Shown here: positions 845 through 63,013 of the stretch, piece after piece | Layout: every line of letters starts with the position of its first letter | Numbering within the stretch: the stretch's first letter is position 1 | Assembly: GCA_003971905.1 (NCBI GenBank) | Contig: RSEE01000060.1 | Location: 124,001-188,000, forward strand | Direction: 5' to 3' | Length of the DNA: 64,000 bases | Origin: Moniliella sp. 'wahieum' | Lineage: Eukaryota | Program-made: the position numbers and the translations under genes | Notes under the pieces: generated by a model | Seen by the model: only the letters and a program-made list of their open reading frames with translations | What the model was told of the DNA's origin: nothing | Databases searched by the model: none

Positions 845-941
845 TGCTTCAAAGGGGAATCGAACCCCTGTCACATCGATGTCATACGAAGGCTGGCCCC
901 GTGCTTGGCAACGATGTAGTATACCACTAACCCATTGAAGC
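845..941 (-). tRNA. tRNA-Gly(GCC) with 26-nt intron (880-905)
   Basis: Minus strand GCTTCAA-TGGGTTAGTGGTATACTA-CATCG-TT-GCC-A[intron]T-CGATG-TGAC-AGGGG-TTCGATT-CCCCT-TTGAAGC-A. Acceptor, anticodon and T stems pair, the intron sits at the canonical 37/38 position, and a T7 Pol III terminator follows (838-844). Confidence 0.93.
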
Positions 942-1575
942 TTGTGCTATTCTTTTGAACGCACCAGTTTCGCACATGCGTGCAAACGTACAAATTATCT
1001 TAGCTGCGCACTACAAAGCTCACACCCCCAAAGCCGACACTCAGTACTCAGTCTAGATCACAACGCTCAAGCTCAACCCTCTCATTCTCCGTCAAACGTG
1101 ATGATCGAGATCAGTATATGCCCCTCTGTGGTCATCCCGCCATATCTCAGCAGGGCTTACATTCGCAGTTTCTTCAATCGGCATCCACTGGCACTGCCTT
1201 TCTTGCTTTCCTCCTCCGGGTAGTCTATGTGGTTGTGTATCGTCGTTCCTCGCCTTTCGGCGGCTTCTTAATCTCCTCTGTCGCCTCTTCAATTTATAAG
1301 CCTTCTCCTCCATCGCACTTTTGCAACTCTACACAATCTCTAAAATTATCAACAATGCCACCCCCTGTTGCACCTCTCGTGTCCCATCAGCTCACGTCTT
1401 GTGCTTCTCTATGATTTCTCGTTTTCTTTAACAGAGTAAAACAACTCCATCGCGTTAGCGCACGTCATAAAGAAAAGGAGAACGATGACAAGTTCTTGAC
1501 ATTGAGTGGTCTCCTTCTTCTCACCCTTCCCCTCCTTCAATTTCACGGGCCAGGGGGGAGATAAGTCTACCACTG

Positions 1576-2112
1576 TCAGCACAAACCGGGGCTCACATCG
1601 GCGCTGAAGCGCTGAAGTCTCGTCAACACTTGAGACCCCCCGTCATCTCCGTAAGCAGAAAGCAGATGACATGCAGTGGATGCAATGAGAGAGGGGGGAG
1701 AACCGATGTGCAAATACAATAAGCACCCCGAACGTACCCAGAACGAGCACAGGATGATGTAGCGAACTACGGCACGTCTGTAACGGGGTGGCTGGCTTCC
1801 CAGGCGGAGACCTTCCCTGCCCATCGGAGAAAAGACTCACGGAGGACTGAACGCGTTTCAGATCCAAAGTCCAAGGCTCATTGGAGTGAACGTAGGAGGG
1901 TCGAGAGTGATGCTTTGCTGTGCGTCGAGCAAAGCCTGAACAGCGGTCTGCGAGCAGAGGTTGCGTGTGTAGGGGCTGGACGCGAAAGCGGGGAGCTCCG
2001 ATATGGGCGAGGGAGGGCGAGCGAGCTGATCGAAAGGTGTTCCTTCTAAAAGTGGAGTGCCTAGAAGAAGGGTGAAGGGGAAAGAATGGTCGGCGGCTTC
2101 GGCCATCATCAT
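1576..2112 (-). CDS. possible small hypothetical protein
   Basis: ATG run preceded by CTATAAAA (about 2133-2140) and a pyrimidine-rich leader. ORFs 1858..2127 and 1643..1867 join by a frameshift, and there is a GTACGT donor-like site at 1737. No family recognised. Confidence 0.25.
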
Positions 2113-4610
2113 TGGATCTAAGAACAAGCTGGTTTTATAGAAGAGAAGGGGAACAAGGGAAGACCAAGAGGTCTACAGTGTAAAAGGGGAAACGAGTCAA
2201 AGGGAAGAAAGGGGACCAAGCGCGAGAGGGACGAGGAAGAGACGAGACGAGGGTCAAGGGCAAAGTGGACCCGAGGTGAGAAACGAGACGAGAAACCGAG
2301 TGGAAAACAATTGTGTGGTGTTTTGGATTTTAGACGAGGGCGAGCGGAGAAACGATGATTGTTGTGGGTTTTGTAGATAGAAAGAGTCCGAGTCACGATA
2401 GGGAAAGAAGCCGAGAAGCCACAGCGACGATAAGGAAGCGGAGGCGGCTGTGCAAGGGAGCTCAGTCGTCGCCCCGTGACAACGTCCATCCACGGAACGT
2501 CTTTATGGGACCTCTGTCGCCGCTGCCCTATGACTCCTTTTGCTTGATGCCAATAAAAGGAGTGGGTGTTTGGAACGCAAAAAACACCATACACTACGGA
2601 CGTCCAAAACGTTCCACATTCGACATTTGGTGATTGGCCTGTTGTGTAACTCGCGTTTAGTGCATTGCATGGAAAATGTATACACGATATGGGGCGTGAC
2701 TTTCATTTCTCTAATGTTACAGAGTCGCTGTTGTCCCAGTTGTGTGTTAAGGCGAAGGTTAGACGGAAAAGATTATGCGGTTTGTAACTAGGGTCCATCA
2801 ATTACTATGTCCCACAGAAGGATTACCGCTTGGAGAGAAGTCTATGGTGTTGGAGTGTGTATATATGATCATAAAGAAGAGGGCACCGATCACAGTCCAG
2901 TCCTAGATCGGCGTCCACAAATTCTTCTCTACACTTTCTTCCCTCTGAGTGTGATTGAAGTTCCACACCCCCTCTCTCCACCACCACATTCGACCTGTTG
3001 TTGGCTATACGTTTAGTGTGTGTACACAGAAGGCTGGCCATTACCGGGAAACGCAAAAGTGTGTACTTACGTGTGCATGTGTACTGTGTGAAGAGGTTGG
3101 GAAGCATCAAACATGACACGATAATAGTGTCAAAGTCATATCTTATGCTAGGGGGCTCCCTTCGCCCGTTATAAGCCTGTGTCGGTTCAAATAACCTACT
3201 AGGAAACGAGAGTGACAGTATAAACGCAACACGGAACTGACTGTGGAGAAGCGCGAGAGAGACCTGTTTTTTATTCATATCATTTTTACACAGCTTAAGC
3301 CTGGGACAAAGAAACGCCGAGTCTATCAAGGTTCACTCACCCGGCGTGTGCTGCTTCTGTTCATTCCAACCCAATTAGGAGTCAGTGGAGAAGAGTCGCT
3401 ATAGCAGGCCGAAATCCTGTGACTGCCAATCCGGATGTATGTGTAGAGTCATGAATGCGAATGTGTGTGGTTTATATATGTGTGCGATGATCTATTATGA
3501 GGCTTGAAGTTAGATGGCTTGAGGCAGCTTCAATGAGACTCCACTATGTGAATCAAGGCTTTTCCAGCACTCAAACGTGTTCTTTTTTTGACCGTCTTGG
3601 TATGGCAGTACCCGGGCGTGGTCAGACCAGGGGGAAGAATGACTCTCCTCTTCTTGAGCGCTTTCATGTGGGTCTTCACATTCCGCTTGTTCCAACAGTA
3701 GATGCACGCAGCTCCTTCTCGCTCTGTTCCGCAGACGTTTTGCGGTTGCCTTTTGTGTATACCACCTTCCGTCGGTACGCAGCAGCCATATTATGCATGA
3801 CCTCCTTCTTTGAAACCGAATCCCTCTCAAAGCGTGTGGTCCACATTCATTCCGGATCCTCCAAACGCCCCTGGGCCCATCATGTACAACTCACAGTGGT
3901 CTTGTGCGGACGGGCACGGGCGCCCGAGTGATTCCTCCGGGTTCCGTTCCCAGTCCGGCGCGTTCCGCTTTCTCTTCTTGTCATCCATCTGTTTACACCT
4001 CTGTCTGTCTGCGCTGCACCAGCACAATTAAAGTCTATAGTACGGTCGGTATTCCGGCCTTCCTCACACGCTGCGTCTTGTCCTTTCTCCTTTCCATCTA
4101 CAGCTGCGGCACGCTGAGAACACGTGTGGGGTCCCGGACGGATCGCAGGAGCTGGAGGATATGGTCCGTCACACACTACCCTCGGGGAACGCACGAAGAA
4201 TTGGATTGAGGGGGGTGCTAATGCGATAATGCCAAGATGTGCTCAATCGATAGCATCGATAACATCAGACCACACTTGCACTTGTTGCGCGAAGAACGGC
4301 ACGGAGGGTATACGCTGGCGTACGACGGAGCTGGAGAGGCCAATCTGAATCAGTTTCCCTTGTCGGTGATGGGCTGGCTTGTGACACTTGATGGCTGCTG
4401 TGGCATTGAAGAGGGAAGCCAATAGTAGTTGAACCTATTGCCTCTCAACAACCGTATTGCGACCATCCGCCTCGTACAAACGGTTATACGTGCCGTTCTT
4501 AGGAGGCCGCCATTTAATGACAAGGTATCGGCGGTGTGGTAGCGCCTGAGGATGTCATCGATTGCCATCGTGTCTTCTGATGTCATCGTCAGACACTCTG
4601 CGTTGCAAGT

Positions 4611-7160
4611 TACATGTTACACGTCAGCGGTACACGTCACACGTCCCATCCCCAGAATGTCACACGCACTGTCTGGGTCCGGTGAGAAAGATGCATGATG
4701 TATGATGCATGATGCCATTGTATCCAACAGGCAACTGGAGTGGCTACTGCGTCGGCCGTTGACGCGTTGACGTTTGAAATTTGACGCGTGACGCCCTTGA
4801 CGCTCTGTGCCGATGGGTGTGGCTGAGGAAGCCAGGGTCGTCAGGGACACGAGTGCCGGTCTGGGCCGGCGTACCGCGACCAATGATTATCGATTATCGA
4901 TTATCAATGACCCGGGTGCCATGTGAGCATGTGAGCGCTGAGCATGTGAGCGTGCCTGTACGCAGGACTTGCCAGGAGAAACGAGCGAGCCGCGCTGAGG
5001 TGGCGCAGCGCGTTCAACCTGGGCAGCGCCCAGGCGCTCGGAGTGTTGGTTCAGTACGTTGAGCGTTGAACTTGGGCCGGCTTGAGCACGTTGAACACGT
5101 TGATGCGTTGACGCAGTTGGTGGTGCGTTGGCGTTGAACGTTGATATATGATAGCTAGTACGTGCTGGTCTGTCTTCCGACGGGATATCCGATACTCGAT
5201 CTCAACAGATCTCTACGTCAATAACGTTCAGCTCGATCTGAGATTTAGACGTTGAACCCATCCCAGATCTCAACGATCTCAATTTCTCTCTCAACCCACC
5301 GTAGCTTGAAGCTTGAAGCTTGACCGGTGACCGGCTTGACGCGTGACGCGTGACGCGCGCCGTGAGACGGCGTGACAACGTGACAGCATAACGGCGTGAT
5401 CGGGTGATCGGTCGATGACCAGTGCCGTTGGCCAGGAACGACGGGCAAGCATACCGCACACCTCGAACTGTCGCGTGTGCGCCATGTTTCGTTCTTATTT
5501 TGCCGGGCAACACGGTGAACTAGGCAAGCCAGGATGTGCCAGTGCAGGCCAGCGCCTGAGGCTTGAAGCCTCCCCAAATGTGGAATCTGGGTAGGGTGTG
5601 CGTCTGGTGCCGCATATGGTGGATGGCGTTTGGCGTTTCTCTCAGCCGCTCAGCGTCACGCGTTACCGGCTCAGCTTAGCGCTTAACCAAATTAATCAAT
5701 GGCGGATACAGGTGGTCACCGGTCAGAGGTCAAATATCGATCTATCGGCGAGAGATATTCGTTGAACGTTGAATGTGGAACGTGGAACTAATTAATTCGA
5801 TGCAGGCGCGCGTGGCCCTGTGGGGCTACGCCGTGCTACGCCCCCCGGCGCCACATGCCCAATCTGGATAGTAGCGGGTCAGCGGCTGAGCGCTGAGCCT
5901 GAGCGTGCAAGCAGAGCAGATGCAAGCGCCAAGCCGAAACAGAGCCCGGGGCGGATGCTGCGCGCTGGAATCTGGAATCGCATGTGAGTGAGATGGTGAC
6001 ATCTAAGACCAAGGTCTGACATATCACTGTGACATGTGCCGCTCTAGACGCTCCAAGCCGAACCTGCCGCCCCCATGTTCACCGGTCACCCGCTCACGCG
6101 TTCGCCTGCTCACGCTCACGCTGCTGAACAGCGACTAGCGACCAGTGCCGCATTGCATGATGCATGATGCATGATGGATGGTGCATGGTGTGATACCACG
6201 CCGTTGTATATTCCTAACTTGGGACCTGCGACAGGTAAAGCTGTAAATGTAAAGCTTGTAAAGCTTGAAGCTTGAAGGCTTGAAGCTTCACTTGAAGGGT
6301 TACCGGTTACTGGTTACCTTACCGGTTGGGCCGATGATCGAAGATCGATGACTAGGATGCCTAGCATCTAACAACTCGCATACCACAATCTCCCATGCCA
6401 CCGGCCCCACCAGGCTACCAAGGTTACCCGCGTCACACGTCACATGTCACATGTCACAGGCCGTGAAGGGTATATCACGCTCGTAGCACACTCTCGCACA
6501 CTCCCTCACTGCGTTTGAACTGGCATGGCCACCACTCTCGCGCCCTTTGCCCGGCTGGCGAATGCATTCCCAGAAGTGCGACACTGCTCTCCACCTGTCA
6601 CATGCTATGTCACACTCACACGTCATCCGTCCCATATTCCCGGTTCCCTGTATAGGTCACTGCTTAGTACTTAGTACTTAGTATTTACTAGTCACTGGGT
6701 CAGGCCGGTCTCTGGCCGCCGCCTGCTGCCGCTCGCCTCAAGCTTCAAGCTTCAAGTGCGGTCACCGGTCACCGTTTGCTTCTCAGAATCTCAGATCTCT
6801 CGGATCTGAGATTCGAGAGCACACGCTCCATCGCAGCCTGGTGGGGCAGGCTGACGCGCAGCCGAGGGCAATGCGGGTTAAGGAACGTTCCTGGCTGGCG
6901 GCTGCTGCCTGCTGCGGGCTCCCCGCCCCCGGGCAGGGTTCAGTGTTCGGCTTGCCCAGCGAGGCGGCAGGCACCAGGCAAGCATCATGCACCGCACGTC
7001 AGGTATCCGTGCATCAGCCACAGACGCACCCGGGCAGCCGAACCCATGCGCGCACTGGGCTACTGCGCCTGCCGGGCCGCCTGTGGATTGCCGGGCGCAT
7101 GTGCTTGTCCGTGCATGATGCATGATGCATGTCAGCCGCTCAGCGCTCAGGCTGAGCCTC
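4611..7160. repeat. dense cluster of short 7-nt-period palindromic arrays (TNA-flanked 6-bp palindromes)
   Basis: Examples: (ATGCATG)n 4691-4715, 6154-6176 and 7112-7131; (GATTATC)3 4885-4905; AAGCTTG/ACCGGTG/ACGCGTG chain 5303-5357; (CTTAGTA)3 6663-6683; TCAAGCTTCAAGCTTCAAG near 6738-6756; GTCACATGTCACATGTCAC near 6439-6457. Confidence 0.9.
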
Positions 7161-9135
7161 ACGCTCCCGCATCGCCGCCCGCAGTGCGCTCCAGTGCCGC
7201 TCAAGCCGCGCCCTGCCCTGCCTTTTCACCCATCCTGCCGCGCTTCCCACGGGCTCAGCCAGGCCCAGGCCCAGGCCCAGCTGCCCAGCTTAACCACCGC
7301 TGCGCCTCGCTCCCTCTTGTCGTGCCCACCGCCACCTCCCCCGCTGCTGCTGCCATGGTTGCCACCTCCCACCCCGCCCCACACGCCCTTCCCTCCGCCG
7401 CCGCCTCACCCACCCCACCTCAGCCTCAGCCTCCGCCTCCGCCTCCAGCTCCTCGGCTCGCGTGCGCAGCTCCACCACCACCGCCGCCTCCGTGCCCCTT
7501 CTGGCACCTGTCCCCCGTCGGGCCTCCTTCATCCACCGCCCCAAGGTCATGCGTTCCCATGCCGCCTCCGTTCCCTCCAGGCCCACCACCCCGTGCACCC
7601 AACTGGCTGCCTCGCTCCAGAATGTGAGCTTGCACGCCCCCCTCCCGGCTCCACCGGTCGTACGCCCATCAGCGCCCCTTCGCCCACTGCCCCCCCGCCG
7701 CCCGTCGTTGGAATCCGCTTCGCTTCCTTCGTTTTGATTGACTGCGATGGCCACGGACCTACCCCACCCCGGACGCCGAGGCATCGTTCCAGCCTGTGGT
7801 CTGCCTGTCCCCTACACTGCTTCACCCATCCCAACTCTCCGCTCTCCCGTTTTTCCCCCCCGCTCATACCTACCTGTACCATCAGCGCTTGCCTACCCCA
7901 CCGCCACGCCCCCTGCCAAGGACTCCTCCCCGCTCCCCCATTCCTCGCTCCTGCACACGAAACCCATTGGCAGCAGCCTTTTCCGCACCACGGTCCACCA
8001 CGCCTGTTCCTGGGCAAGTACTGGGCTTGGAACTGGGCTGCCCTGCCCCCTGGGCGCACCTCGACGTACGTGCTTGATGGTCTTCCCGCTTTTCCACATA
8101 CAGAAGTGATCCCAAGCCCTGGGCCGGGCCATCCTGCTCCTTACCACGTACAAACGACGGGAGGACACAAGACACAAGGACCATTCTCCTTATCCTCCTT
8201 TGCCCGTTCGTTTCTCGTTCGTCGGGGCATCTACCCCTGCTTTTTGTTTACGACTTCTTCCTCTATTCCCTTCCCCCCCCCTCCCCTTCACCTCTGTGCC
8301 CACGAGCCACCCACTGTCTGTACAACTGTTTTTTTGCCTTGGTAGTGGCCTTGACTTGGCCCTACCTGCTGTACAACTCATACCATGCGTGCCCTATCCG
8401 GCTCAATGACTGCTTTCCTAGCCTCTTCTTTCGGCTCTCAGTGCATATAGATGGCATCGACCTAGGATTGATTGGCTAACGAGGGCAGGGGAGGGGAGAG
8501 TGCGCTACGCACTATGTCCGTTATGGCGACCGATAGGCACGAGTGGTAGGTATGACAGACGGTGACCGGTGAGGCCCTAATGAGAGAAAGGAAAGAGGGC
8601 GAGGATTATGGGAGAATGATGCATTTCTGAATCGATTCGTGCACAATTAGTAGGTAGAGGGAGTTCCTGGTTGTGCCTACCAATTGGTGCATTGGCTGAG
8701 CAAGGGCGTAGTGGGGGACGAGCGCGGCTGGTGCAGCTGATGAAATGAGGAAGTCCCTTTGAGCAGGGTGCGAACCGCATGGTCCCAAGAAACGAGAGAG
8801 AGCGACAGGTGGTGCTGATTGCCGTGCGGAAGCAGTCGGCAGCGACAGAGCGGCCGTCGTAACATGACAGGGGGACGGGAGGACACCCAATGTGATGAAC
8901 CTTTCAAAGCCTAAACGGGGGTCACGTGCCGCGGGTTCTGATGCATGATGAATGAGCATGAGCGGAAGTCGCTCTTCGGCGGGGTTCCGCCGATTTTCCA
9001 TTTTAGTCGCCGAGCGCGGACGCGACGACCGGTCGCGACCAACCCCCACCACCACCACTCCCGCCACTCCCGCCACTCCCGCCACTCCCGCCATCCCGCC
9101 ACTGCCAACCACTCTTGTCGCTGTTGTTTGTCGTC

Positions 9136-15628: not shown

Positions 15629-17828
15629 TTACTCTTTTGGCTTGGAGCGGAACGCCAACAAGCACTCGAGCTCCGATACGGGACACGCCAATTTAACAAA
15701 GTCGTGGTGCAGCAGTTGTTGGGCCGTAGCGCGGAACTTGACATTGACACAGAGGCAGACGGTCAAAAAACTTTTCAGTTCGTGCGACCAGGCTTCCGGG
15801 TGCTTGAGGGTCGGGGTGCCATTGGTAGCAATCAAGTAGAGCGCCTTGAGCGGTTCTTCGTCCAAGTACGGCGGGTTCCGATTCCAGTAGTTCGATCAGC
15901 AGAATGCCCAAACTCCATATGTCCACTTTTTCCCCATACTCCTCTTGCTTGACCACCTCGGGTGCCATCCAGTACGGCGTGCCGACCAAAGTGGCCCGCT
16001 TGGATCGTTGGTCGGTCAGTTGGGCACAGAACCCAAAGTCGGTGATTTTGACGTGGCCCCGATTGAGGAGGATGTTGTCGGACTTGATGTCGCGGTGGAT
16101 GATGGAGTGGGCATGGAGGTGTTGCAATCCTTTGCACGTCTCGCCCAAGATGGCGGCGATCTGGGGCTCGGTGAGGGTATTGTGATCAATCACTTCGGTC
16201 AAGGCACCACCTTCCATGTACTCCATAATCACCCACACCTCCGTCTCCTTTTTGACCAAGAACGAACCGAGAAAGTTGACCAGGTTCGGGTGCTGGGTCT
16301 GCTGCAGAACCAGAATCTCATTGACAAGCAACTCTTTCCGCGACTGATGCGCCAACTCCATCGTCTTGATTGCTACCCGTTCCCCCGTAGCCAACCTCCT
16401 GCCCACATACACCGACCCACTCGCTCCTTGCCCCACCTTTTTGATCTTGGAATACAGCGTCGCAGGGTCTTGCCCCGACACGACCGTCCGCAGCTTGGCA
16501 ACTAGTTGCGCGTCCGTCATGATATTCCTCCGCTTCTCCCCTGGCCTGCCCGCTTCTTTCCCAGACCTGCCCGCCGCACGCGGCTGGGGCGAAGCTGGGG
16601 CGGCAAGCTTGGGAGACGGAGCCGGACGGGGATGGGAATGGGGATCAGGATGGGGATGGGGATGAGCTTGAGGTTGCGGTTGTGGTTGAGGCTTGGACCG
16701 AGCGGGCGCCCCCCTAGCCAGCGCATATGTCGACGCAGACGCAGACCCAGACACAGACGTAGATGTAGACGCAGACGCAGATGAAGATGCAGATGCCGAC
16801 CTTGCCGCTGCCGCGGCTTGCGTCCGAACTGAAAGGGAAGCAGCGGCCTTGTTAGCCAACTGCGCATCCTGGGTCATTGCCCCTCGCGAACCAATGACGG
16901 GAGACGGCGTCCTGCTTATGGACCGGGTTAGAGGGGCAGGACGTAGTCCCTGGGTAGGCACCGGCTTGAAGGGCGTCTGGGCCGCTGGGCTTTCGTACCT
17001 GGAGCGCGTGCCTATAGCCACGGTGCTAGTGGCTGCGGGTCGGGTTGTTTGGGGCACCACGACACGGGGGTTGGGGGAGGCAGAAGCGATGGGATGGCCC
17101 AAGCGCGCCTGTTGGTCGCGGGTTTGAAGGCGAGTGTAAAACTCGAGCACGTCCAAGACGGCTGGGGGTTTTTGACATAATCTTCCTTGGTGATGGCCGA
17201 GGTGGTGAGCAGCCGGGTCCATTGTTCCGGCAGGCCAGTGAATCCGCCTGTGACCGGATCAAAGCCGACGTGCACTTGGTGCTGGAACCCCGTTGGCGCC
17301 GACACGCCCAGCTTGGGCGCCCGACTGTAAATCTCGTCCATCCAACTGTAGAGTTCGAAATCGGATTTGAATTGGACCCAGTACGATTTGCCCTTGGCCT
17401 CGAGCTCGAGGCAGTAGGGCTTGACATCGGACCGCGCCACCGAGGTTAGGTCTTGCAAAAACAACAACAGCCACGGTTGGTATGTCGTTTCTGTCTTGTG
17501 CAGCGTCAACGTCTGTTCCCGCAGCGCCATCCACCGCTTGCTCCACATCCACGACCGCAGCCCGTCCTCCTTGACGGACACGTACCCGGACCGCACCACG
17601 GCGGTCGCGTCGAGCGCGGCCGAGGCGGCGGTAGAGCTCAGTCCATACGCACCGATGCCGGCGGCAGGGGTGCCGGCAATGGGCCGCAGCGGGCCCGTGA
17701 AGGGCAAGACGGACTGAGAGGCTTTTTTGACGACGGATGAACCGGCGGCGCTGGGAGCGGGCGGGGCGGCGGCGGGAGGGAGTGAGGGAACGGGCGAAGG
17801 GGTCGGGGGGCGTCGCAACGTAGCTCAT
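15629..17828 (-). CDS. CLA4: Cla4-type p21-activated kinase (PH-CRIB-kinase)
   Basis: PH domain ([29 protein letters not shown]), CRIB ([29 protein letters not shown]), kinase motifs [23 protein letters not shown] and GTPYWMAPE, and C-terminal [20 protein letters not shown]. Frameshifted. Confidence 0.93.
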
Positions 17829-19063
17829 ACCGTCGAGGGAGACCACCCAAGGGGGGGGGGGGGGGCAGGACGAATCTATACGAGGGCTTTCACAGCAGAC
17901 GGAATAGTGTTTGTCGCGATATATAGCCAGAATCCAAAATGGATCCAAAATTCCCTCGGCCATCCCACGACGCGTTTTTTACGCGTCACGCCATCACCCA
18001 CCCATCAGCCATCTGCCCCGCCGCGCCGATTCCTTGCAATCTCTCTGACCATGCCACACGCCCCATACCACACCCGCACCGCCCGGTTGCACCCATCGCA
18101 CTTGGCTGCCCTGCTGATCGACCTGATCAGCGGTGCGATCCGGTACTACTTGCTGCCTGCGAGTGGTGCGATGGCCAGGACAGACCCCTTGCCCTCGGGC
18201 CTAACCCCCCCCACACACGCTGCCTGCGCCACTGCCTGCCACCGCAACGCAGCATCCGTAGGGCCAAACGCCTGTCACACGCCCGTCCTCGCCACCACTC
18301 CCTCCGCAGCCGGAGGCCTGAGGGTCTGAGCAGCGGCACTGCACACACGACGCCCATGTCAGCTCCGCCCGGACTGCACACACACACATAGTCCTAGTCG
18401 CACGCGTTTCTCAGATCTCAGATCTCACGCTGCTCTAGCGTGTCCACACCACCCACAACACGCAACACCAAAATCAAATCCGATCCAGCCACGTGTCCTC
18501 CTGCGCCTCCTGGACCCTCCCTCCGGCCGGCGAACGTGATGTGGATTTTCTCGTCACGGAACCGGCTCAGGCCCAGGCCCAGGATGGCTTGGCGCTTCGG
18601 CCGCTCCAGGCCCGAAACGGGGCGGAGGACGGACGGGAGCGGGATGCTGTGCCTGCGTGTCGGACGCGGGGTGGCCATCGATCATCGCGACCTGGGCCTC
18701 GTGGCTGGTCTGGATCGACGGGACGCGGCGCGGAGGTGCTGGGGGTGGCGCCAGCGGGGTGCGAGGATGGCGGAGAAGCAGGATCGAATGTTGAGCTCAA
18801 CTTAGCCCGCCAGAGTGGGATGGTGGCTGGTGGGGCGGGTGGGGCAGCGGGGGGCATTCCGCCCCAGCGCGGAACAGGGGGTTGAACATTGCAAGCGGGC
18901 GGCTGCCTGGCCCTGCGTCGCTCGCCCCACACTGGCCAGCGGCTTGGGCGCGGACACAGGCAGCTCGTCGTCTGCCTCGGCTTTGGCCGTCGTCGTCGTC
19001 GTCGTTGCCGCCGCCGCCGCCGCCGCTGCTGTCGCCGTGCTTGGGCCCGGCGAGGCCGACTCC

Positions 19064-22713: not shown

Positions 22714-23453
22714 GTGGTGGCAGTGGCGAGTGGTGGTGGGGCTGGGCCTGAACACTTGGCCGCACTTGGCCCAACAGCCACACGCGTCGTCACCAGCCGA
22801 GCGGAATTAAGTCGGCTAGGGCGGGGCCACCCACACAGGTCACATGACCTGAGCGATGCGACTGGCCAATGAAATCATTAATCATCGATCTCATCGACCA
22901 TCCCGCCCAGCTGCAATTTCAGTTGAACGTTGAACGTTGATGCGTATTTCAACGGCTGGAGATCAGGTCCAGGCAAGGGCAGGGGCTAACGGCAAAACCA
23001 GCAACGCACACGTCCCTTTCCCCACCGTGTGGGCGCAGCCGCTCGTCACCGCCAATAGCCGTCCAGTGAAGGCATCTGGGCGGCCATGCTGGCCTCCAGG
23101 CACGCCTCCTCGCTCCGCGCTCCCATCCATGGCCCACACCGCAGACGGCAGTTGTGGTGGACGTAGGACACACACCCCGAGAGCCGACGGAGTATTTGAT
23201 GTGCATACTTAACCCACGTCAGCCGACATGCGCCCACCGCGCCTCCCTGCTGGCGGTGCGAGCGAAAGCGGCCTGACATGCATGAGGGTCTCGCTCAACA
23301 CCACGCCCGTTGGCATCTCTCCCGGTATGTATCCCCCCCACTGGTATATAACATCGGCGCTGCTCCCTCTCGCTTCTGTCGCACAATTGCTCCCCTCCTA
23401 GCTCCAACCCTGTGTGTGGTCTTCCGCTGTTCCATCGACCCTCCGCTCGCCAA

Positions 23454-28394: not shown

Positions 28395-28649
28395 CGGGGG
28401 AGAACGCCAGCAAAAAGCGACGAGGGGAGGTGTGGGTGGCCGCGCTAAGCGCTGACCATCCACGGCCCACACCGGCCCGGCTGCATTCACGCTGGCAGCC
28501 GGGCGTGCAACTTTCAACTCCCGCCTTCCCCCGGTCACGTGCCCCCGCGGCGCCCTTCCGCTTCCGCCCTGGCCTTCGCATTTTTCCAGCCACGCCCAGC
28601 GGGCTGCCCTCTGGTCCACTAGTAGAACCCCCCCCCCCCCCGCCGCACA

Positions 28650-30350: not shown

Positions 30351-30801
30351 GTCGAGCAAAAGAATGTGATACCAGACTTGGGATGTAGGCACAAACGGGA
30401 GGGGTAGCCTGCGCTGGGGCTGAACGTTGATTGATGGGTAGGGCTGCTGCTACACGGGGCGGATCGGCACGTGGTGTGGGACCCAGAATGTTCAAAAAGG
30501 GGTGGCGCACCAGACACCCCCGAGGGTTCGAACACCCGCACACTGGCGCTGCGCCTGCGCCCATCTCGCATAGGCACAGCCGATGGGCGCTCTCTGACAC
30601 ACCGCACTGGCCCAGTGTGCGCTGGGCGCCTGCAACCCTATGCCGATCAGAGGCAGTGCACAGCACTCGGTCGTCAGATCTCAGATGCTCTGTTTCGGCC
30701 CCCCCACCTCGCCGATCGCGGCCCCCAAGAGAGGCGGACCACCACCACCACCGCCCCTTCTTCGCCTTTGCCCCCGTCCCTGCGCCAGCCATCGCCCAAC
30801 G

Positions 30802-34434: not shown

Positions 34435-37400
34435 TCAAGTGGTGCGCGAAGCCACATCGAGCGTCAAGGGGCGCAGGGCCAACTTGCGCGAGGACTGGGC
34501 CTGATGATTGGGTAGACTGGTGGTAGCGGTGGGAGTGGGAGTGGTCTCGGTAGGTTCTTGCGAGGGGGGCGTTAGGCCATCGGTTTCGACCGAGATGGAG
34601 GTAGGGGCACTGTGTTCGCATGAGGAAGACGGGTCGCGGGGTGGGGTGGAAGAAGTGGAGCCGGGTAACTTGAGCCCACTCAAATCGGCCTTGGTGGTGG
34701 TATGCATCTCATTGTACGCTTCGCTCAACGCTTCTTGCAACGCACGAATTTGCGATTGCGCCTGCCGCTTCTCCGCTTCCAACGTCACCACCGTATCGTC
34801 CAGATCGCGTACTCGCAACGACAGTTGCCGGCCATCCATTCCCAGCGTCATGGTCCGCAACGACGAGGGCTTGCTCCGGTGTCCCAGCGCGGGCTGCGAC
34901 CGCGTACTGGCCTGCGATGAGGGACGAGAGAGACTGGGTGCATGGCCGGCAGTAAGCCCAGTAGGCAACGAAGGTACCGGTGGCACATCCCCGGCTTCCG
35001 ACGACGGTGGCTCAAAGATTCGCGCAACGGGCGGCACGGGCTGCAACTTGAACGATTTCCGTCCGCCCGACCGTTGTCGGTCTGCCCGACTCGCCGCCCT
35101 GGATTGCGAAAAGGATGCAGAAGAGCTAGAGGGCACCCGGTTGGGAATGCGGTGTGGGGTCCAAGTATGCGTCCGGGCCGCCGCTGAGGGCGCCGAGGTG
35201 GACGATAGCGACGGCGAAGGAATTTCCCGCGCATGTACGCGCGCAAGCGCCTCGTCCAGCATGGCACCCGGCGCACTGGTCATTGGGAGTCTGGTATAAC
35301 GGGAGGGGGGGAAGTTAGAATGTACTCTAAGAAACGAGGAAGCAAGGAAGAGAGGGAGGGAGGAAAGAAACAAAGTAAAAGGGAGGGAAGGAAGGACATA
35401 CCCAAGCTCGCTATGGGCAGGCGTGTTGACTGTCGACACTGCCTCGATCGACTTGTCCAGCAAGCCGCGCATACCAGTAAGGAACCGCTCCAAACGTGCC
35501 TTCTCCTGGTGGCTCGCCATGACTTGCGTCCGGAGGGCGTGGATCAAGCTCCGCATCTCCTTGACCTCACCCACCACCCTTGTCCAATCCAACGGGGCCT
35601 GCTTGCCCGTCGAAGCGAGGCCGAGCGTGGGCGGGGTGGAACCGGCGCGGCTGATGGGCGTGACGGGCGTCGGAAGCGACATGGCCAAGTGACCGGGAGT
35701 ACTTTGCGGCGTTCCACGCTCCAAGACGGGCGAGGAGGGATTGGTACTGCGCTGCTCAAAGCGCGAACGCAGACTGCTCACGTCCACCTTGCCCGAACCG
35801 AACCGGAGGAGGTGGTAGAACGGTGACACCGGGACTGCGAGAGCGGATGACAGGCGAAGGCCACGTCCCAGCCAACCGGTTCTTGGGCAGAGGAGGAACT
35901 TCGTCGGTGCCCATGCTGGCCGTGACGCTGGGCGTCGTGCCTCCCCCCAAGGAAGCCTGGGGGAAGAGCGAAACAAGCTCGGCCAACTCGGTTGCAGAAG
36001 GACCCGGCTGGGTCGAGGAGGAAGCAAGCAGTGGTTTGGCCCCGATCGCCTTTGCCCGTGCCGAATCGAGCTCGACCCGCATCGCTGCCGCATCCCGCGC
36101 CAGTTGCTCGTTCTCGGCTCGCAAATGGTCATACTGCTCATGCAGCGCAGCGAATTGGACGCGCAGACGAGCATGTTCCTCGCCCAAGCGGCGTGACGAG
36201 CCAAGTGCGACCGATCCTCCTCGCTCCGGGGGGAAGAGGAGGGGGACATGGGCGCGAGCGTACGGAGTGAGACGCCGGCATCGCCTTCATCGTCGGCAAT
36301 GTCCGTGTGAGCATCGGTGTACTCGCTGGAGGGAATGGGCGACGAAGGTTCCACTTCCCTTATCACCACGGGCACAGGCGCGAGCATCTCCATCTCATCC
36401 GGCTCGGAGCTGAGGATTTCCGACGTGATGGGCGGCGCCAACGATCGCGCGCCACCGAAGGGTAGGGAGGCTGGTACAGCAGGGGCGTGGGATACGGCCT
36501 CGAGCTCTTTTGCAAGACGCGCACGCTCAGCTTCCAATCGCTGGCACTCGGTCCGCAGCACCGTCGTCTCGGCGGTCAATTCGGCCGTGGCATGCTGTGC
36601 TTCCAACGCGGCCCGCTCTGCCATGTCCAAACGTCCAGCCAGACCAGGCAACTCGGGGTGGTCCAAAGAAGACACGGACCCCGTCTTGTCCGCCCGCAGG
36701 GCCGAAACCAACCGCGTTTCCAGCTCGGCGACACGGGTGCGCGAAGCGGCCAACTCGGGCTCCAGCGATGCGACGGTGCGCTGGAGAGCACGTGTCTTGG
36801 CCTCCAACGCGGCTAGCTTGGTGCCATCGACCACAGGCTGGTCCTGCTTGGCTGCCATCGCACTGCTATGCGCCTTGGCCAGTTCTTCCTCCAACAACGT
36901 CACCTGCACCGCCTTGTCTTGGGTCTGCTGCCGTGCCTCATCCAGCGCCTTGCGCGCCCTGCCACAGTTTGCTCCAATGCAGACCGGTCCACCTCCACCG
37001 ACTGCAGCTTGACTTCAGCGTCCCGGGTCAGCTTGGTCTGCTCGGTCAGCTCCAGCTCGTAGCGTGATACGGTGCTGAGCATTTCCTCCAGCTGCCGCGC
37101 CAGCCCGCCGTTTCGCCCGAGTGGGAACGACGAGCAAGATCAGCACTGCGGGGACCGCCATCTCTCGTGGCTTCCGTCCCGATCGCCCGCTCCGTCTCCG
37201 TCTCTGTCTCCGTCTCTGTCCCTTCGTCCTCCGTCTCCAACCCCAGGGTTCGGGACTCGTTCGGACGCCGGTGCACCCGCCCGCCGCGCCGTTCCAGCTC
37301 ATCAAACGCGTCGGTAATGTGTTCCGAGATGGACGAGATGAGGGAATCAATGTTCTGACCTGCCGTTTCACGTTGCCGAGGCACCGAGACGCCCTTGATT

Positions 37401-41965: not shown

Positions 41966-44900
41966 GTTTAGCGTTCAGCCTGAACGTGAGTCAGCCTTGA
42001 AGCTTCACGTTCAACTTGAACGTCAACGTCAACGTCATGTCGTCAACGCGTCACGCGTCAACCCGCAACGGGAACGTCACGGCTAGTCATTACTGTACTC
42101 ATAATCATTAAGCTTCGCCCCCCCTTTTCTGATAGCGGCGTAACGCGTATTACGCGTAAACGCATAAGCGAGATAAGCGCACCGCGTTTAGCCCAAATGC
42201 GCTACGCGTTACGCGTTCCAACGCCCCCACTTGCCACTGGCCACTGGCCAAGCATCATGCATCATGCCACTAAGCACATCAGCGCATCCCCCTGCACTCT
42301 CCTCGTCCTAATCCACACCTGGCAAATTCGCATCTCTCGGCTGCCATCGCCACCCCATCTACCCCACACGCGTCTTCATAACGTCGTCCAACCTTACCGG
42401 TTACCGGTTAGGCCGTCGATCATCGCCGCCAGCGTCACCTGCATTGCAGACGAACACCCCCCTTCCGTCCGATCCCCACACAGGTCATCATCAGCTCGAG
42501 CGGCCGAAACCTACTCTGATCTACATGTGCCGACATCACATCACGAATGATGTGATGTGATGCCACCAAGAATCCGAGAGTCCTGCTGGAATCTCTGTTG
42601 AGAGTTGCCGTACATGCCACATGCACTGTGTGCAAAAGCACAATCCTTAATCCTCTCTCTGTAAGGTTACCCACCCCTCCTCTTCCTATCTCCCTTTTCC
42701 ATGCATCCTCGATGGTCCAACGGCTATGATGTGACGCTCTCACTGCACTTGCAGCAACCGTCAAGACCCGGGTTCGACTCCCGGTCGGGGAATCTTTTTC
42801 ATGGAACGCCTCAGTCTTCGTTTGTGAGCGGTCACGGCATAGACCATCCACAAAGCTCTCATCGCCTTTGGCCAAGCCGTCATTCATATTTTTTCAATGA
42901 CGAAAAGTGACACTGCACTCCAAAAAAGCACCATTGGAAAACGAAGCAGCTGGCGTAAACGAAACATCTGCCTTTGATCTGTGGTATCCGTATCGTCCGA
43001 CCTCTCTGGAGGTGCGAAGATGAGAACGGAGAACTGGGGAGAAACGATAGACGAAAAGTACGCTGTGTGGTGCCCCACAGAATACACATGATATACTACC
43101 TCTTTCGATGCCATCCACTCAATTGCCTTGGGAGAGACTTTCATCGGCTCCCACTTCGGAGAAACACGCCTACATACTGGCCTTAGGCTAAGCGCTGCTG
43201 AGGGCTGAGGCGATGAGGAGGGATTGAGAGGACGTTGGCCAAATCATTAATCACAGAAGCCACCCACGGTGGCTCAGCGCTGCTCAGCCTGAGCGCTGAG
43301 GCTCAGCGCTAAACGCTCAACGCTCTCTCAACGTTCACCTAAGCCTCAGCGAACAACTTTGAGGCTCAGCACCCCCCTCCATCATATTGCACTTGTTCGG
43401 CACATCCTCCCCTCCTCCCCCACACACACTAAGCCATAAGCGATCTATCTACCGCCCTTGCACCTTGCCCTCTCGTTGTAAGTACAACTCACGCGTTGCT
43501 GAAAAAAAGAGTACATCATGCCATGGTCCACCTCTCCCGCGTTTCCTCTATTGTTCTTTTTCCACAGACGGCTCTCAAGAGATCTGAGAGCATGGGCGTC
43601 CCAGATAGAGAACCCACACATTGAAGCTTTTGGATCGGTTCCCGCACGGCCTTGTGCAACGCGCGCACCACCCGCTCGGATCGGTTTTTGGGTGTCGGAT
43701 AATCCAAATGCCAAACCACACCACACACGAAGAATTCCAAGATGTAAGATGTGGCCTCAATCGCATAATATCGCAAACTGTATATATACTGGGCCCAGGA
43801 GTCAAAGATGGCAGTTGCACGACTTGGAGGCAGGAATGAAGATAAGGTTGTAATCCCTGGAGATCTGAAAAGAGTATAGCAGGCAACCTGTCATAGTTAG
43901 GCTGATCGATCTGAGATCTGAGATCTGAGATCTGATCTCGCTCTCAGCATTTCCAATTTCTTCGTCCCGAACGTCTCTCGCACTTTCTCTGTCTTTCCTC
44001 CGCTTCGCACCATGTCCTCTGCTCTTGCCTCTTCCCCCCACGAACGATTGCTACATACCTGCACCTGGTCTTGACTATGGTCTCATTCGCCCTTAGCGCC
44101 GACTTGTGGCAACCAAAGCCCTTCTTCGTCATTCTCTGCATCTTGCCGTTGTCGCAGCATCATGTAGTCGTTGCGGCCAGTGCCAGTGATGGCCACGTAA
44201 AAAGGGTTTTCAACGATTAAGCGTAAGGTTGAACTTCAACGTTCAAATTTCAAACGAACAGCGGATGCGTGTGTGGGGCATCTCTGAGATCTGCAGCCCT
44301 GCACGGCCAGCACCCAGTCAGAAAATTACGCCACGACGGTACGTGTGGCCACTACGGCGTACGGAGAAGACAGAGTGTGCGGTGGTGAGCAACAGCACGA
44401 GTAACTGAGTACTGGGTACTGATGTGGCATACCTTCTACCGAGTGCTACTGGGGCTGATGCACTGGCGCATGATGGTATTGTGGTTCGCTGCTGTAGTGA
44501 TGCTAGTGATGGGGGTGGATGGATATTGTGGGTGCTCATGGCGCTCATGCACTCATGGTGCATGACTAACACAACTCATCGTTTTGAATGTGTTTCGCGT
44601 TGCCGCGCAGGTGTTGGACAATGTTGACGCGTTGACGACGTTTGCCACAGTTTGCCACAATAAGGCCATTGAACGTTGAACGTTGAGTTGAATGTTGACC
44701 CACAACGGTTACCGGGTACCGGTTATCAGCTTGAAGCTTGAAGCTTTCCTATTACTTGCGGTTACCGCGGTTATAATATACCCTCAGCCAGGGGTCGTTA
44801 TCATGCAGATCATGTGAATCAACCCAAGTTAAGTACTACTCCGGCATAACAACTACTACCGTTGCATCCGGGTAGAACTGAAGCTCAGGCCTGACACAGT

Positions 44901-45271
44901 GGCAGCTTGACTAATAGAACAGATTCACGATGCAATGGTCTCCTGGGAACTTGAAGCTCTCTCCTGAGAGCGCCTGTGCCATGTACCATGGGATATGGAC
45001 CTCGTGCCCATGTCATGCCGCCGGCCACAGAGAATTGCGCCCTAATACTACTACTACATCATCATATAGGCGCAGCCACAACAGCAGCGCCGCACCCGAA
45101 GAGAAGAGAGCGCCCAACCCCCCGTGAGGCCGTGAGGCCTCAGCCTGAAGCCTGAGGCACAGCAGGGGCAAAACAGCGAGTCGCACAGCAGCACACACGC
45201 CTTCTGCCTATAACCCACGAGGATCGGGTGGGAAAACTGAGTACTGAAGCTTGAAGCTTGAAGCTTGAAGC
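41966..45271. repeat. second cluster of 7-nt-period palindromic arrays flanking tRNA-Glu
   Basis: ACGCGTCACGCGTCA near 42046, TTACCGGTTACCGGTTA 42394-42410, GCATCATGCATCATGC near 42252, (GATCTGA)4 43908-43935, TTGAACGTTGAACGTTGA near 44669, AGTACTG(AAGCTTG)3 45240-45267. Confidence 0.88.
42706..42792 (+). tRNA. tRNA-Glu(CTC) with 15-nt intron (42743-42757)
   Basis: TCCTCGA-TGGTCCAACGGCTATGATG-TGACG-CT-CTC-A[CTGCACTTGCAGCAA]C-CGTCA-AGAC-CCGGG-TTCGACT-CCCGG-TCGGGGA-A. Stems pair, and a TTTTT terminator lies at 42795-42799. Confidence 0.93.
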
Positions 45272-45421
45272 GCGATTAAGCTAACCCACAACACGCCCTG
45301 CCGCAGCAGCTGGAAGCACACAAGTAAATAGACAAACTACACTGTGTGCTCTTCGGCTCTCTGTGGTGCTGGTAGCACAGCTATACCACTATTAGGATCA
45401 CTTTCATTCTCGCGGTCCCAC

Positions 45422-56737: not shown

Positions 56738-57393
56738 TCGCGCTTTCTCTCTGCTATACGCGTATCTCTCGACACACAATCAGCGTGTACAATGGATCTC
56801 ACCTTAGAATGCTTGCCCTTATAATTACTGCCCCCTACTGGTTCACCGTGTCAATCGCTCGCACGATGCCATTTCCATGCGCACTCCCCTCGCTGTCCGC
56901 TTTTTTACCTGCGTCTATAGCCGACTACGGCTGACCTGTCTTTCTCTTCAAGCTTCAAGCAATGGAATTCTTTGTAGTAGAGACACTATGACAACCGCGG
57001 GGCGGGAAGAACCTGTCTGCAGTGCTCAAAACGTCTGTCACCTGCAAATTAAGCGTGGCATCTTACTCTGTATGTGGAGAGGGAGAAAAGACCATTCGGG
57101 CCTCAAGGAAGATAGCCTACAATCATAGACTTCCTTGGAGCCTTCCTTCGATTGTGCTCCCGCGATTGGGGGATGAGGGGGACGAAAGTGCTCAACACGA
57201 CTATAGTATACCTCAGTGTCTTCCAGAGTATCCTATCTCGTTTTCTCTAAGCCCGGCGATAGACGTATTCTGCTGCATATGCAGCTTCTAATAGCTATAT
57301 CCTTCCTCTTTCCCCTTCCCTGCCTGCAAACTGGCGGTACCCGTGGAACACGCATAGATTCAAGGGACACGTATCCGAGGACGAGCGGTAGCG

Positions 57394-58889: not shown

Positions 58890-59574
58890 GGTCAGCAGCG
58901 GGGAACAGGAGACGCTGCAGAGACCGCTGGGCTCGGCGTCGCCGTCGTCGTCGTGGAGGAGAGCGGCGACGGGATGGGATGGGCGAGGAGGATGGACAGG
59001 TGAAATGTGCACTGCTCAGGCTGAGCGCTGACCGATCGATGATCCTCCCCGGCGCCTTCTGGCTTATTAATTCGGCCTGGGCCAGACAGGCCGCATGGCG
59101 CCAGTGCGGTGACGTGTGGGGTATATTGCTCCCCATCGACCATCCGTCGGCTGTGCGCACGTATATGGATTTAGGAGCGGTGGTATATAGTGTCTGCCCA
59201 TGATACACACGGCCAGCGGAGGCGTACTCGCTCGCATGTTGCCTGCACCCATGCTCTCATCTACCGGAGAACGATCCACGTCACACACGCGACTGCCGCA
59301 AGGCCGCATTCAAATTCAGAGGATATCCCATGATGTGCAAAGCGAGTCTAAAACATACAGGTTGGGCTAGGACCTTGTGTCAGCAGGCCTCTGCCAAAGA
59401 GTCCGTACAATAGCTGCCCGAGGTATACGCCAGAAGTTGGCAGGAGCAGCATGGAAAAGGCTATGGGAGCAGGTGAACCGCCAGGCTTGCCTCTCCCATC
59501 GCATCGGGCGCTAGAGGCGCGTTGGCCCACGTGCTTGATCGGGCGAGAAAAGGGTGTGTGTGTGTGCGGGGAGG

Positions 59575-62353: not shown

Positions 62354-63013
62354 GCTGCCGGGCATGGCTTGCCGCCGTGGCGAGGGGGTGCTAGGGGGCA
62401 GAGGCAAGGGCAAGACGGCCATCGCACCCGCAGGTCCATGCAGCACCAGCGTGGGGGGGTGGGGGTGGGGGCGAGGGGGGCGAGGGGGCGAGGTGGGGGC
62501 GAGGGCGTGGCGGAGGGGGGGGTGCTGGAGTGGGTGCTGGCTGGGCCATGCCATCGTGCTGGGCACGCGGCGAGCAGGAGGGCGTGGGTGTCTCGGGCGC
62601 TGGGCGGGACACTGCGCTGGTGCGCTTGTTGCACCACCTTCCACATAGAGCGCTGGGCCAGCACTGCCCCCGTGCGGCAGCGGCCCACGCCGGCAGTTTT
62701 GCGGTTGTGTTTTGCTGTGCTCTCGGGCGAGGCATCACGCGGACATCACATGTCACACATCACCCGCTGCTCACGCTTGCACCGATCGCCAGCACCGCCC
62801 ATCGATATGTCGCTCCCGCCCTGTCCGTGGACGCACCAGGCGAAGGCACCGCCACTCCTCTCCCTTCGATGTCGGCAGCAGGCCAGACGGCACCCTTGCC
62901 TACCACACCTTTCCTACCACCATCCTTACCACCATCGTTACCATCTTCCCTACCACCTTCCCCCTCCCACCGTCCTTGCGCCAGCCTCACACATGCATCC
63001 CATTCACTCCACA

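Follow-up and report, generated by a model that had tools for sequence, protein, structure and literature searches.

The window analysed here is a stretch of 64,000 nucleotides (64 kb) of contig RSEE01000060.1, and the objects of interest in it are short arrays with a period of 7 nucleotides (nt), in which palindromic 4-mers alternate with T-N-A triplets (TNA). They crowd in two stretches, called zone A and zone B below, and we consider it likely that they were left behind by the excision of a cut-and-paste DNA transposon, itself absent from the window; the term footprint is used for them from here on in this sense. The main features of the window are as follows.

4611..7160, zone A, footprint-rich, no Pfam-matched gene; 25 loci, 351/2550 bases (13.8%) inside footprints
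41990..45300, zone B, second footprint-rich stretch; 16 loci, 225/3311 bases (6.8%); transfer RNA (tRNA) gene at 42706-42792
845-941, minus strand, tRNA-Ala(AGC), intron-containing
15696-17978, minus strand, open reading frames (ORFs) of a PAK-type kinase (Pfam)
42706-42792, plus strand, tRNA gene (42.4 bits) interrupted at the anticodon loop by a 17-nt insertion, inside zone B
60316-62745, minus strand, ORF of a NIPA transporter (Pfam and protein similarity)

The host of the window is, on protein similarity, a basidiomycete of the Ustilaginomycotina: the exon of the NIPA-type magnesium transporter (60316-62745, minus strand) has its closest proteins in this group (Tilletiaria anomala, 60% identity; top match, 79%). 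An earlier note on this DNA had thought of a lineage like that of Ustilago, so its guess was close. The genes identified by Pfam encode a fumarate-reductase-like flavoprotein with cytochrome b5, the PAK-type kinase, a proteasome subunit, an ABCD transporter, Rpc34, two isocitrate/isopropylmalate dehydrogenases, the complex I 49-kDa subunit, NIPA and a PP2A-A HEAT protein, and no Pfam match was obtained for the ORFs at ~0.7-8.9 kb and 42-49.4 kb. The same holds for all ORFs of at least 100 aa that overlap 4611-7160. The description of this stretch as gene-free in the earlier note agrees with that result, but a lineage-specific gene may lie within it.

Enrichment of TNA-flanked palindromes

Against a background of 100 dinucleotide-preserving shuffles of the window, a palindromic 4-mer between two TNA was found 76 times, in 53 clusters, where 6.3 matches (standard deviation 2.5) are expected (z = 27.8), while none of the other 15 X-N-Y flank classes around a palindromic 4-mer is enriched (at most 1.43 times the expectation; ANT-flanked palindromes: 8 vs 7.1). 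TNA around a non-palindromic 4-mer is depleted (61 vs 93.8 expected), and pairs of TNA with the same N and a non-palindromic 4-nt gap are at expectation (27 vs 28.7). The 76 matches are clustered, with 34 of them at 4-7 kb and 23 at 42-46 kb. The earlier note had proposed a genome-wide count of this kind, against non-palindromic TNA and against other palindromes, and in the window its observation is confirmed. All 15 of the A....T hexamers that it had cited in the TN[A....T]NA context stand exactly at the positions given for them, and AATATT, the one that it had not seen, indeed has no match in this context (0 vs 0.14 expected).

The same stretches stand out by their period. Exact tandem duplications with a period of 7 number 21 in 4611-7160 (0.13 expected, ~160-fold) and 13 in 42000-45300 (0.16 expected, ~80-fold), whereas exact tandems with periods of 2-5 are at expectation in both zones, in agreement with the opinion of the earlier note that ordinary slippage is insufficient. 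The window has 47 exact period-7 tandems, and in 27 of them the unit is TNA plus a palindromic 4-mer, as compared to 1.9% of random 7-mers. Direct reading of 4611-7160 provides examples such as AGCTTGA x3, TGACGCG x3, TGCATGA x3.3, CTTAGTA x3 and GATTATC x3. Since the counts by flank class, by period and by unit point the same way, we regard the pattern as real and as specific both to T.A flanks and to the period of 7. Neither TNATNA (+3) forms (38 vs 29.5) nor period-5 forms (3 vs 2) are enriched. No repeat of at least 24 nt is common to the two array-rich zones besides the arrays themselves, which indicates that the arrays formed in place and do not derive from a dispersed element; a dispersed repeat family or a miniature inverted-repeat transposable element was discarded as an explanation on this ground.

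Anatomy and catalogue of the footprints

The earlier note had described the unit as A-x-y-y'-x'-T plus one spacer base. Its symmetry and its period of 7 are real, but a 7-bp direct repeat nnTNAnn (abTNAxy) describes what is repeated better than a 6-bp palindrome with a spacer does. The N of the paired TNA is identical in 64/76 matches and complementary in 5/76, hence the TNA is a direct and not an inverted repeat. The minimal object is a 12-mer, TNAxy-y'x'-TNAxy (form R) or its mirror y'x'TNA-xy-y'x'TNA (form L), i.e. a 5-nt direct repeat plus two reverse-complement bases. Among the 36 runs with a single hit, the period-7 match is shorter than 7 nt in 23, thus the isolated matches are mostly not two full heptamers; the most frequent shape, with 11 runs, is an extension by exactly 2 on one side only, and 2 runs are not extended. 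Arrays of the shape (TNAxy y'x')n TNAxy (l + r = 2) were found at 6738, 18409 and 22922, and five multi-unit arrays have whole-unit ends (l + r = 4).

The filler is derived from the flank. Between copies of TNAxy at period 7 it is y'x' in 41/45 cases on the plus strand and in 42/49 on the minus strand, and, counted regardless of arrays, there are 41 cases of form R where 0.17 are expected, and 42 of form L where 0.15 are. In 60 of the 64 palindromic junctions with the same N the palindrome is xy+y'x' or b'a'+ab, set by the flank dinucleotide; the palindrome-only junctions number 4/64, where shuffles would give 1.8 junctions with the same N and a palindrome of whatever kind. The inner sequence, which the earlier note had called free, is nearly but not wholly so: 13 of the 16 palindromic 4-mers appear in strictly defined footprints, with uneven use (ACGT and CCGG at 7 loci each, GCGC and AGCT at 6 each) and under the control of the flank. 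In two of the hexamers cited in the earlier note, AGGCCT and ACTAGT, the N differs between the two sides.

The longer variants repeat the whole heptamer. In the +8 class, nnTNAnn is repeated around one flank-complementary base at 7 sites (1605, 4760, 4924, 6273, 6783, 44625 and 45125; ~0.03 expected per form). The +9 class, with a 2-base filler, has 3 sites (~0.03 expected), where the repeats start at 6248 (TGTAAAG-CT-TGTAAAG), 44496 (AGTGATG-CT-AGTGATG) and 44534 (GCTCATG-GC-GCTCATG); overall, the shuffle expectation for the +8 and +9 classes is ~0.03-0.06. One +10 site with a 3-base filler (43272, GCTCAGC-GCT-GCTCAGC) and one +12 site with a 5-base filler (6279, CTTGAAG-CTTCA-CTTGAAG) complete the series. 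P nucleotides, i.e. the reverse complement of the flank, make up the filler in 7/10 period-8 and 3/3 period-9 repeats of TNA-centred 7-mers, as compared to 9/105 period-9 repeats of 7-mers not centred on TNA. The palindromes, of 2-10 nt, are even-centred: the last flank base is kept and its complement is added (xy|y'x').

Two classes of period-6 repeats centred on TNA are also enriched (8 vs 0.55 and 7 vs 0.62), and 11 sites fit a "-1" footprint. Examples are TCAACG x4.5 at 42011-42037 and the repeats at 1067, 5894, 6110 and 6244, which fit two 7-bp copies minus one base; these forms were left out of the counts, several of them lying inside coding hexamer repeats.

With the footprint defined strictly, the window holds 53 loci, of which zone A has 25 and zone B 16; the other 12 lie outside both. 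They are listed with the number of bp added and, in parentheses where not written out, the TNA and the inner 4-mer. Those of zone A are:

4610..4619, +7, form R (TTA, CATG)
4703..4712, +7, form R (TGA, TGCA), within a decayed GATGCAT array at 4690-4715
4760..4770, +8, GTTGACG-C-GTTGACG
4775..4791, two +7 abutting, common TGA (AATT then CGCG)
4887..4903, +7 array TTA-TCGA x2
4924..4941, +8 TGTGAGC-A-TGTGAGC, then +7 (GCGC)
5135..5151, two +7 abutting (ACGT, TATA)
5307..5330, +7 array TGA-AGCT x2 abutting TGA-CCGG
5337..5353, +7 array TGA-CGCG x2
5676..5685, +7, form L (TTA, GCGC)
5716..5725, +7, form L (TCA, CCGG)
5763..5772, +7, form L (TGA, ACGT), decayed copies on to 5788
5887..5896, +7, GCTGAGC x2
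6079..6088, +7, form R (TCA, CCGG)
6158..6174, +7 array TGA-TGCA x2
6250..6261, +9, TGTAAAG-CT-TGTAAAG, full 7-bp repeat and 2 P nucleotides
6266..6295, compound on the target CTTGAAG: +7, +8 (filler G) and +12 (filler CTTCA, 5 P nucleotides)
6300..6309, +7, form L (TTA, CCGG), decayed copies on to 6327
6440..6456, +7 array TCA-CATG x2
6664..6680, +7 array TTA-GTAC x2
6738..6754, +7 array TCA-AGCT x2, shape (TNAxy y'x')n TNAxy
6762..6771, +7, GGTCACC x2
6783..6793, +8, TCTCAGA-A-TCTCAGA
7116..7125, +7, CATGATG x2
7140..7149, +7, form L (TCA, GCGC)

The loci of zone B are:

42051..42060, +7, form L (TCA, CGCG)
42255..42264, +7, CATCATG x2
42394..42410, TTA-CCGG x2, readable as one form R and one form L event
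43244..43253, +7, form L (TCA, TTAA)
43274..43286, +10, GCTCAGC-GCT-GCTCAGC, 3 P nucleotides
43290..43299, TGA-GCGC-TGA, palindrome only, one-base extension on each side
43328..43337, TCA-ACGT-TCA, palindrome only, no flank support
43912..43935, +7 array TGA-GATC x3 (4.0 copies)
44236..44252, TCA-ACGT (palindrome only) abutting +7 form R (AATT)
44498..44509, +9, AGTGATG-CT-AGTGATG
44536..44547, +9, GCTCATG-GC-GCTCATG
44625..44635, +8, GTTGACG-C-GTTGACG, the 15-mer identical to that at 4758
44670..44686, +7 array TGA-ACGT x2
44732..44741, +7, CTTGAAG x2
45125..45135, +8, CGTGAGG-C-CGTGAGG
45238..45268, TGA-GTAC abutting a TGA-AGCT x3 array

The loci outside both zones are:

1041..1050, +7, ACTCAGT x2 (TCA, GTAC)
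1605..1615, +8, GCTGAAG-C-GCTGAAG, 7-bp repeat and 1 P nucleotide
8563..8572, +7, form L (TGA, CCGG)
8939..8948, +7, form R (TGA, TGCA)
18411..18427, +7 array TCA-GATC x2, just past the upstream end of the PAK-type kinase ORFs
22875..22884, +7, form L (TCA, TTAA)
22924..22940, +7 array TGA-ACGT x2
30421..30430, TGA-ACGT-TGA, palindrome only, no flank support
30674..30683, +7, form R (TCA, GATC)
56948..56957, +7, CTTCAAG x2
59022..59031, +7, form L (TGA, GCGC)
62746..62755, +7, form R (TCA, CATG), at the upstream end of the NIPA ORF

Thus 41/53 loci fall in two stretches without recognisable genes and the rest lie mostly between ORFs, i.e. where insertions of +7 to +9 would be tolerated; outside the two zones the footprints cover 136 of 58139 bases. 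The N at footprint loci is G or C in 46 cases and T or A in 7, the background of TNA outside footprints in the zones being 188 S (G or C) to 78 W (A or T). The central base also shows a strand asymmetry, with TTA..TTA 9 times and TAA..TAA 0 times (by locus, T 6 and A 1; the TTA loci are 4610, 4887, 5676, 6300, 6664 and 42394), and in zone A TGA prevails up to ~6.3 kb and TCA from ~6.4 kb. The 15-mer GTTGACG-C-GTTGACG is identical in both zones (4758-4772 and 44623-44637). Several targets recur, namely CTTGAAG, GTTGAAC, CATGATG, GCTGAGC and GGTCACC, which suggests a preference beyond T.A. The sole odd-palindromic heptamer array with an A-N-T centre, CCACTGG x2.6 at 42233-42250 (ACT-GGCC), breaks the rule.

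The tRNA gene at 42706-42792 was found by a local scan only, as ARAGORN and the whole-window Rfam gathering scan missed it, and by eye it resembles tRNA-Glu. Two footprints, at 1041 and 1605, are 100 bp and ~660 bp away from the tRNA-Ala at 845-941. The presence of a gene transcribed by RNA polymerase III in both array-rich neighbourhoods could be a coincidence or a targeting cue. Elsewhere in the window, the two isocitrate/isopropylmalate dehydrogenase genes stand head to head (49441-50789, minus strand; 50533-52140, plus strand) and are accompanied by inverted repeats (49516-49625 vs 52105-52214, 110 nt, 73% complementary; 50054-50089 vs 51645-51680, 89% complementary), and we take the pair, as judged from its sequence, to be an inverted gene duplication. 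Two long open frames on the minus strand, 34438-37014 (859 aa) and 38287-40983 (899 aa), match no Pfam family at E-values up to 1e-4, one of them having a sub-threshold similarity to DUF4407 (E = 2.2e-4, 21 bits vs a cut-off of 31.3); they are probably lineage-specific or low-complexity proteins. Homopolymers occur at 17851-17865 (G15), 41246-41262 (G17) and 28628-28641 (C14), of which G17 and C14 were reported as an inverted pair in the repeat scan.

Origin of the arrays

The sequence rules and their statistics are read directly from the DNA; from them we infer a transposon, a hairpin intermediate and a succession of steps, as set out in the following scheme. The element would integrate through a 7-bp staggered cut centred on T-N-A (abTNAxy, with N mostly G or C), so that 7 bp become duplicated on each side of it. 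On leaving, the transposase would seal each flank into a hairpin with its tip exactly at the border of flank and element, and a host nuclease would open the hairpin a few bases off the tip, mostly 2, leaving a self-complementary overhang (xy y'x' or b'a' ab). End joining that retains one overhang and drops the other would then give abTNAxy-y'x'-TNAxy or abTNA-b'a'-abTNAxy with a net gain of 7 bp, i.e. a 4-nt palindrome of arbitrary sequence between two identical TNA; less often, the second copy would be retained whole, with +8, +9, +10 or +12 as the outcome. The five matches with complementary N (e.g. TGAGGCCTCA) are as expected from hairpins opened at least 4 nt off the tip.

In a +7 scar the second TNA would come to lie at the centre of a perfect odd palindrome, y'x'TNAxy. 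Were such a palindromic site used again, both 4-nt overhangs would be identical and cohesive, and their rejoining would add an exact heptamer, while use of the outer TNA, with its unrelated outer flank, would place a different palindrome beside the first. The abutting arrays with a common TNA, AGCT-TGA-CCGG at 5307-5330 and GTAC-TGA-AGCT at 45238-45268, fit the latter case, and the arrays at 6738, 18409 and 22922 have the shape (TNAxy y'x')n TNAxy that the scheme predicts. Replication slippage may later add or remove units, and it probably does act too, since five arrays end on whole units.

Several observations argue for this scheme of integration and hairpin-type excision. The agent is expected to be sequence-specific, as of all 16 flank classes TNA alone is enriched, and the excess of period 7 over periods 2-5 points to a fixed stagger and not to slippage. 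As the full nnTNAnn is repeated in the +8, +9, +10 and +12 sites, the direct repeat appears to be 7 bp long when nothing is lost. Both copies of the target-site duplication (TSD) are kept, wholly in +8 to +12 (the full 7-mer) or partly in +7 (TNAxy), and the added bases are flank-derived P nucleotides in nearly all junctions (60/64 for +7, besides the period-8 and period-9 repeats counted above). Among the processes contemplated in the earlier note, a recurrent one acting at TNA through hairpin opening and fill-in is thereby supported, both by these fillers and by the existence of the longer variants. An asymmetric 5-bp TSD (TNAxy) with two P nucleotides was discarded, as the longer variants repeat all 7 bases; on the T side, P nucleotides are confined to TGCA arrays, in which they are at the same time those of the xy side. 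Exact duplication of a pre-existing palindromic 7-bp target was likewise discarded as the main route, because most isolated period-7 runs are of 5-6 nt.

Some findings weigh against an excision origin. The 64 kb yielded no transposon flanked by a 7-bp TNA-centred TSD and ending in inverted repeats: the first scan for a 7-bp TSD with inverted termini reported 7 candidates (1-3 in controls), none of them convincing, and of the 6 candidates from a second scan 5 were arrays matching themselves. Comparison of 224 ORF translations (8 + 68 + 148) with Pfam revealed no transposase domain. For footprints, 25 loci within 2.5 kb make a very high density, which would presuppose strong regional targeting or local hopping, and 3/10 period-8 repeats of TNA-centred 7-mers have a filler of another kind than P nucleotides. 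Finally, the +7 events are deduced from one sequence, in which growth to 3-4 units by repeated insertion and excision would look the same as growth by slippage.

Slippage as the origin of the arrays, with chance palindromic heptamers expanding as microsatellites through lagging-strand hairpins, would agree with their being short tandem repeats, with the whole-unit ends of five multi-unit arrays and with the folding of one array: in single-strand folding of five arrays against 200 shuffles (z = -1.57, +0.20, -1.15, -2.89 and +0.46) the one with z = -2.89 folded better than all shuffles. The other four fold no better than shuffles, however, and a microsatellite process should enrich short periods with a free unit, whereas only period 7 is enriched and 27/47 units are TNA plus a palindromic 4-mer. 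Together with the enrichment of A....T palindromes alone (not of C..G, G..C or T..A ones), the 23/36 isolated matches with a period-7 run under one unit and the flank-complementary fillers between full 7-mers in the +8 to +12 sites, which are not products of slippage, this makes slippage a very improbable source. Even less credit can be given to footprints of PIF/Harbinger or CACTA elements, with a 3-bp TNA as TSD and 2 nt of each inverted terminus left between the copies. TNA or TWA is the target of PIF/Harbinger, the sum 3 + 2 + 2 gives 7, and the 4-mer would be palindromic since the termini are inverted repeats; but at least 13 palindromic 4-mers would then require as many families with differing termini, and the flank dinucleotide, unlike element-derived bases, predicts the 4-mer in 60/64 junctions. 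The direct repeat in the longer variants is of 7 bp and not of 3 bp, and the CACTA footprints entertained in the earlier note are not supported for the same reason.

The lack of a visible transposon in the window would be natural if the arrays arose without one, either through template switching in replication errors or through a staggered nuclease with fill-in and polymerase turn-around at TNA. To our knowledge, there is no nuclease with a 7-nt stagger outside transposases and integrases, which speaks against the second variant. For the first, a direct repeat with a short inverted copy in between resembles the small inverted triplications ascribed to replication errors in the accessible part of PMC13334657. 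Here, however, the direct repeat is constantly 7 bp and centred on T-N-A, while the inverted part varies over 1-5 nt. Nothing in a replication error would fix the length or the centre of the repeat; the combination fits a fixed integration stagger with a variable hairpin nick, and we judge an origin of this kind unlikely. Selection for regulatory or DNA-shape elements, as in arrays of bZIP or homeodomain sites or in cruciform promoter elements, is suggested by the intergenic location of the loci, some of them just upstream of genes (18411, 22924 and 62746), and by TGA/TCA, a common half-site of bZIP and TALE-homeodomain factors. Yet T.A is the sole constant among 13 different 4-mers that are nearly free and set by the flank, no longer conserved motif joins the loci, the folding is unremarkable, and the +8 to +12 forms would not be expected under selection, so that we consider it very unlikely as the cause; the "grammar" or selected-shape interpretation of the earlier note is not upheld, given the absence of conserved sequence and the folding scores. 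Some scars may have been co-opted secondarily as binding sites. An artefact of assembly or sequencing can practically be dismissed: the arrays (10-31 nt) are far shorter than reads, lie in unique sequence, differ widely from one another and obey a flank-dependent rule that no assembler makes.

Novelty and comparison with known systems

The class of mechanism, a hairpin-type excision footprint, is already known. What appears to be new is that scars pile up as heptamer arrays, how much of the intergenic DNA they make up and the putative type of element (a 7-bp TSD centred on T-S-A with an even hairpin); no description of scars stacked as heptamer arrays in fungi was found in the full-text literature searched, from which subscription journals are largely absent. 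We speculate, tentatively and with more doubt than conviction, that an unrecognised and probably still active family of hairpin-forming transposons (7-bp TSD, T-S-A) exists in a lineage of the Ustilaginomycotina, whose scars regenerate their own palindromic target, seed further insertions and grow into heptamer arrays. If so, it would be a transposon-driven generator of microsatellite-like DNA that lengthens and rewrites intergenic regions genome-wide and preserves site by site the hairpin-opening preference of the host. If the arrays are excision footprints at all, such scars, usually treated as rare single events, could accumulate as tandem arrays up to ~14% of one zone. Dozens of individual transposition cycles would then be legible in a few kb of fungal intergenic DNA, and the sequence alone would yield the target (nnTSAnn), the stagger (7 bp), the shape of the flank hairpin formed on excision (even-tipped) and the position at which the host mostly opens it (+2). 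By bringing short palindromes and TGA/TCA motifs to the upstream side of genes, the arrays would be a plausible source of regulatory variation, and the rule could serve as a simple genome-wide scan for past transposon activity where the element is rare or lost.

With regard to known systems, transposition by Transib/RAG produces a TSD of 5 bp, and the canonical TSD of hAT elements has 8 bp, nTnnnnAn, the second being T and the seventh A. The arrays share with Transib/RAG the even-tipped flank hairpin but not the length of the TSD, and they depart from hAT (Ac/Hermes) in their 7 bp, of which the third is T and the fifth A. Fill-in of staggered breaks, as made by topoisomerase II, gives a tandem duplication as long as the stagger; unlike the arrays, topoisomerase II duplications are of 2-4 bp, without a palindromic filler or a requirement for TNA. 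The target consensus of Galileo is palindromic and odd-centred, and P-type excision leaves element-derived overhangs and not flank hairpins. Galileo, an insect element, differs from the arrays in this mode of excision; what it has in common with them is the TSD of 7 bp, reported for this member of the P superfamily of Drosophila in the accessible part of PMC3573991.

Flank hairpins are described, in the available portion of PMC5499845, for hAT, for Transib/RAG and for a Mutator-like element. In V(D)J recombination the nick that opens the hairpin falls 1-4 nt 3' of its tip, +2 being the main position, which gives mostly 4-nt inverted-repeat overhangs (PMC2175297, as far as its accessible text goes). 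The coding joints made by RAG share with the arrays the P nucleotides copied from the flank, the even centre and the spectrum of 1-5 nt with 2 dominant. Excision of Ac/Ds in plants, budding yeast and Candida albicans leaves palindromic P-nucleotide insertions and short deletions at the donor sites, with few predominant types of footprint per host, and the centre is odd, the complement being that of the base next to the element (PMC5873905, in the part available). The palindromes of the arrays are even-centred, and the hAT footprints considered in the earlier note are accordingly not supported in their Ac form. For Basidiomycota, the phylum of the host, the accessible part of PMC12730594 reports 7-bp TSDs of hAT7 in Pucciniales and of Kyakuja in Agaricomycotina; these elements, reported there from Pucciniomycotina and Agaricomycotina, are likened to the present one by the length of the TSD alone, and no homologue of hAT7 or Kyakuja was found in the window. 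The arrays differ from hairpin-type footprints and V(D)J joints in that no element accompanies them in the window and in that the scars are stacked in tandem, filling ~14% of 2.5 kb, while with the footprints of hairpin-forming transposons they share the retained TSD. We thus file them under hairpin-type excision footprints in general and not under any one superfamily.

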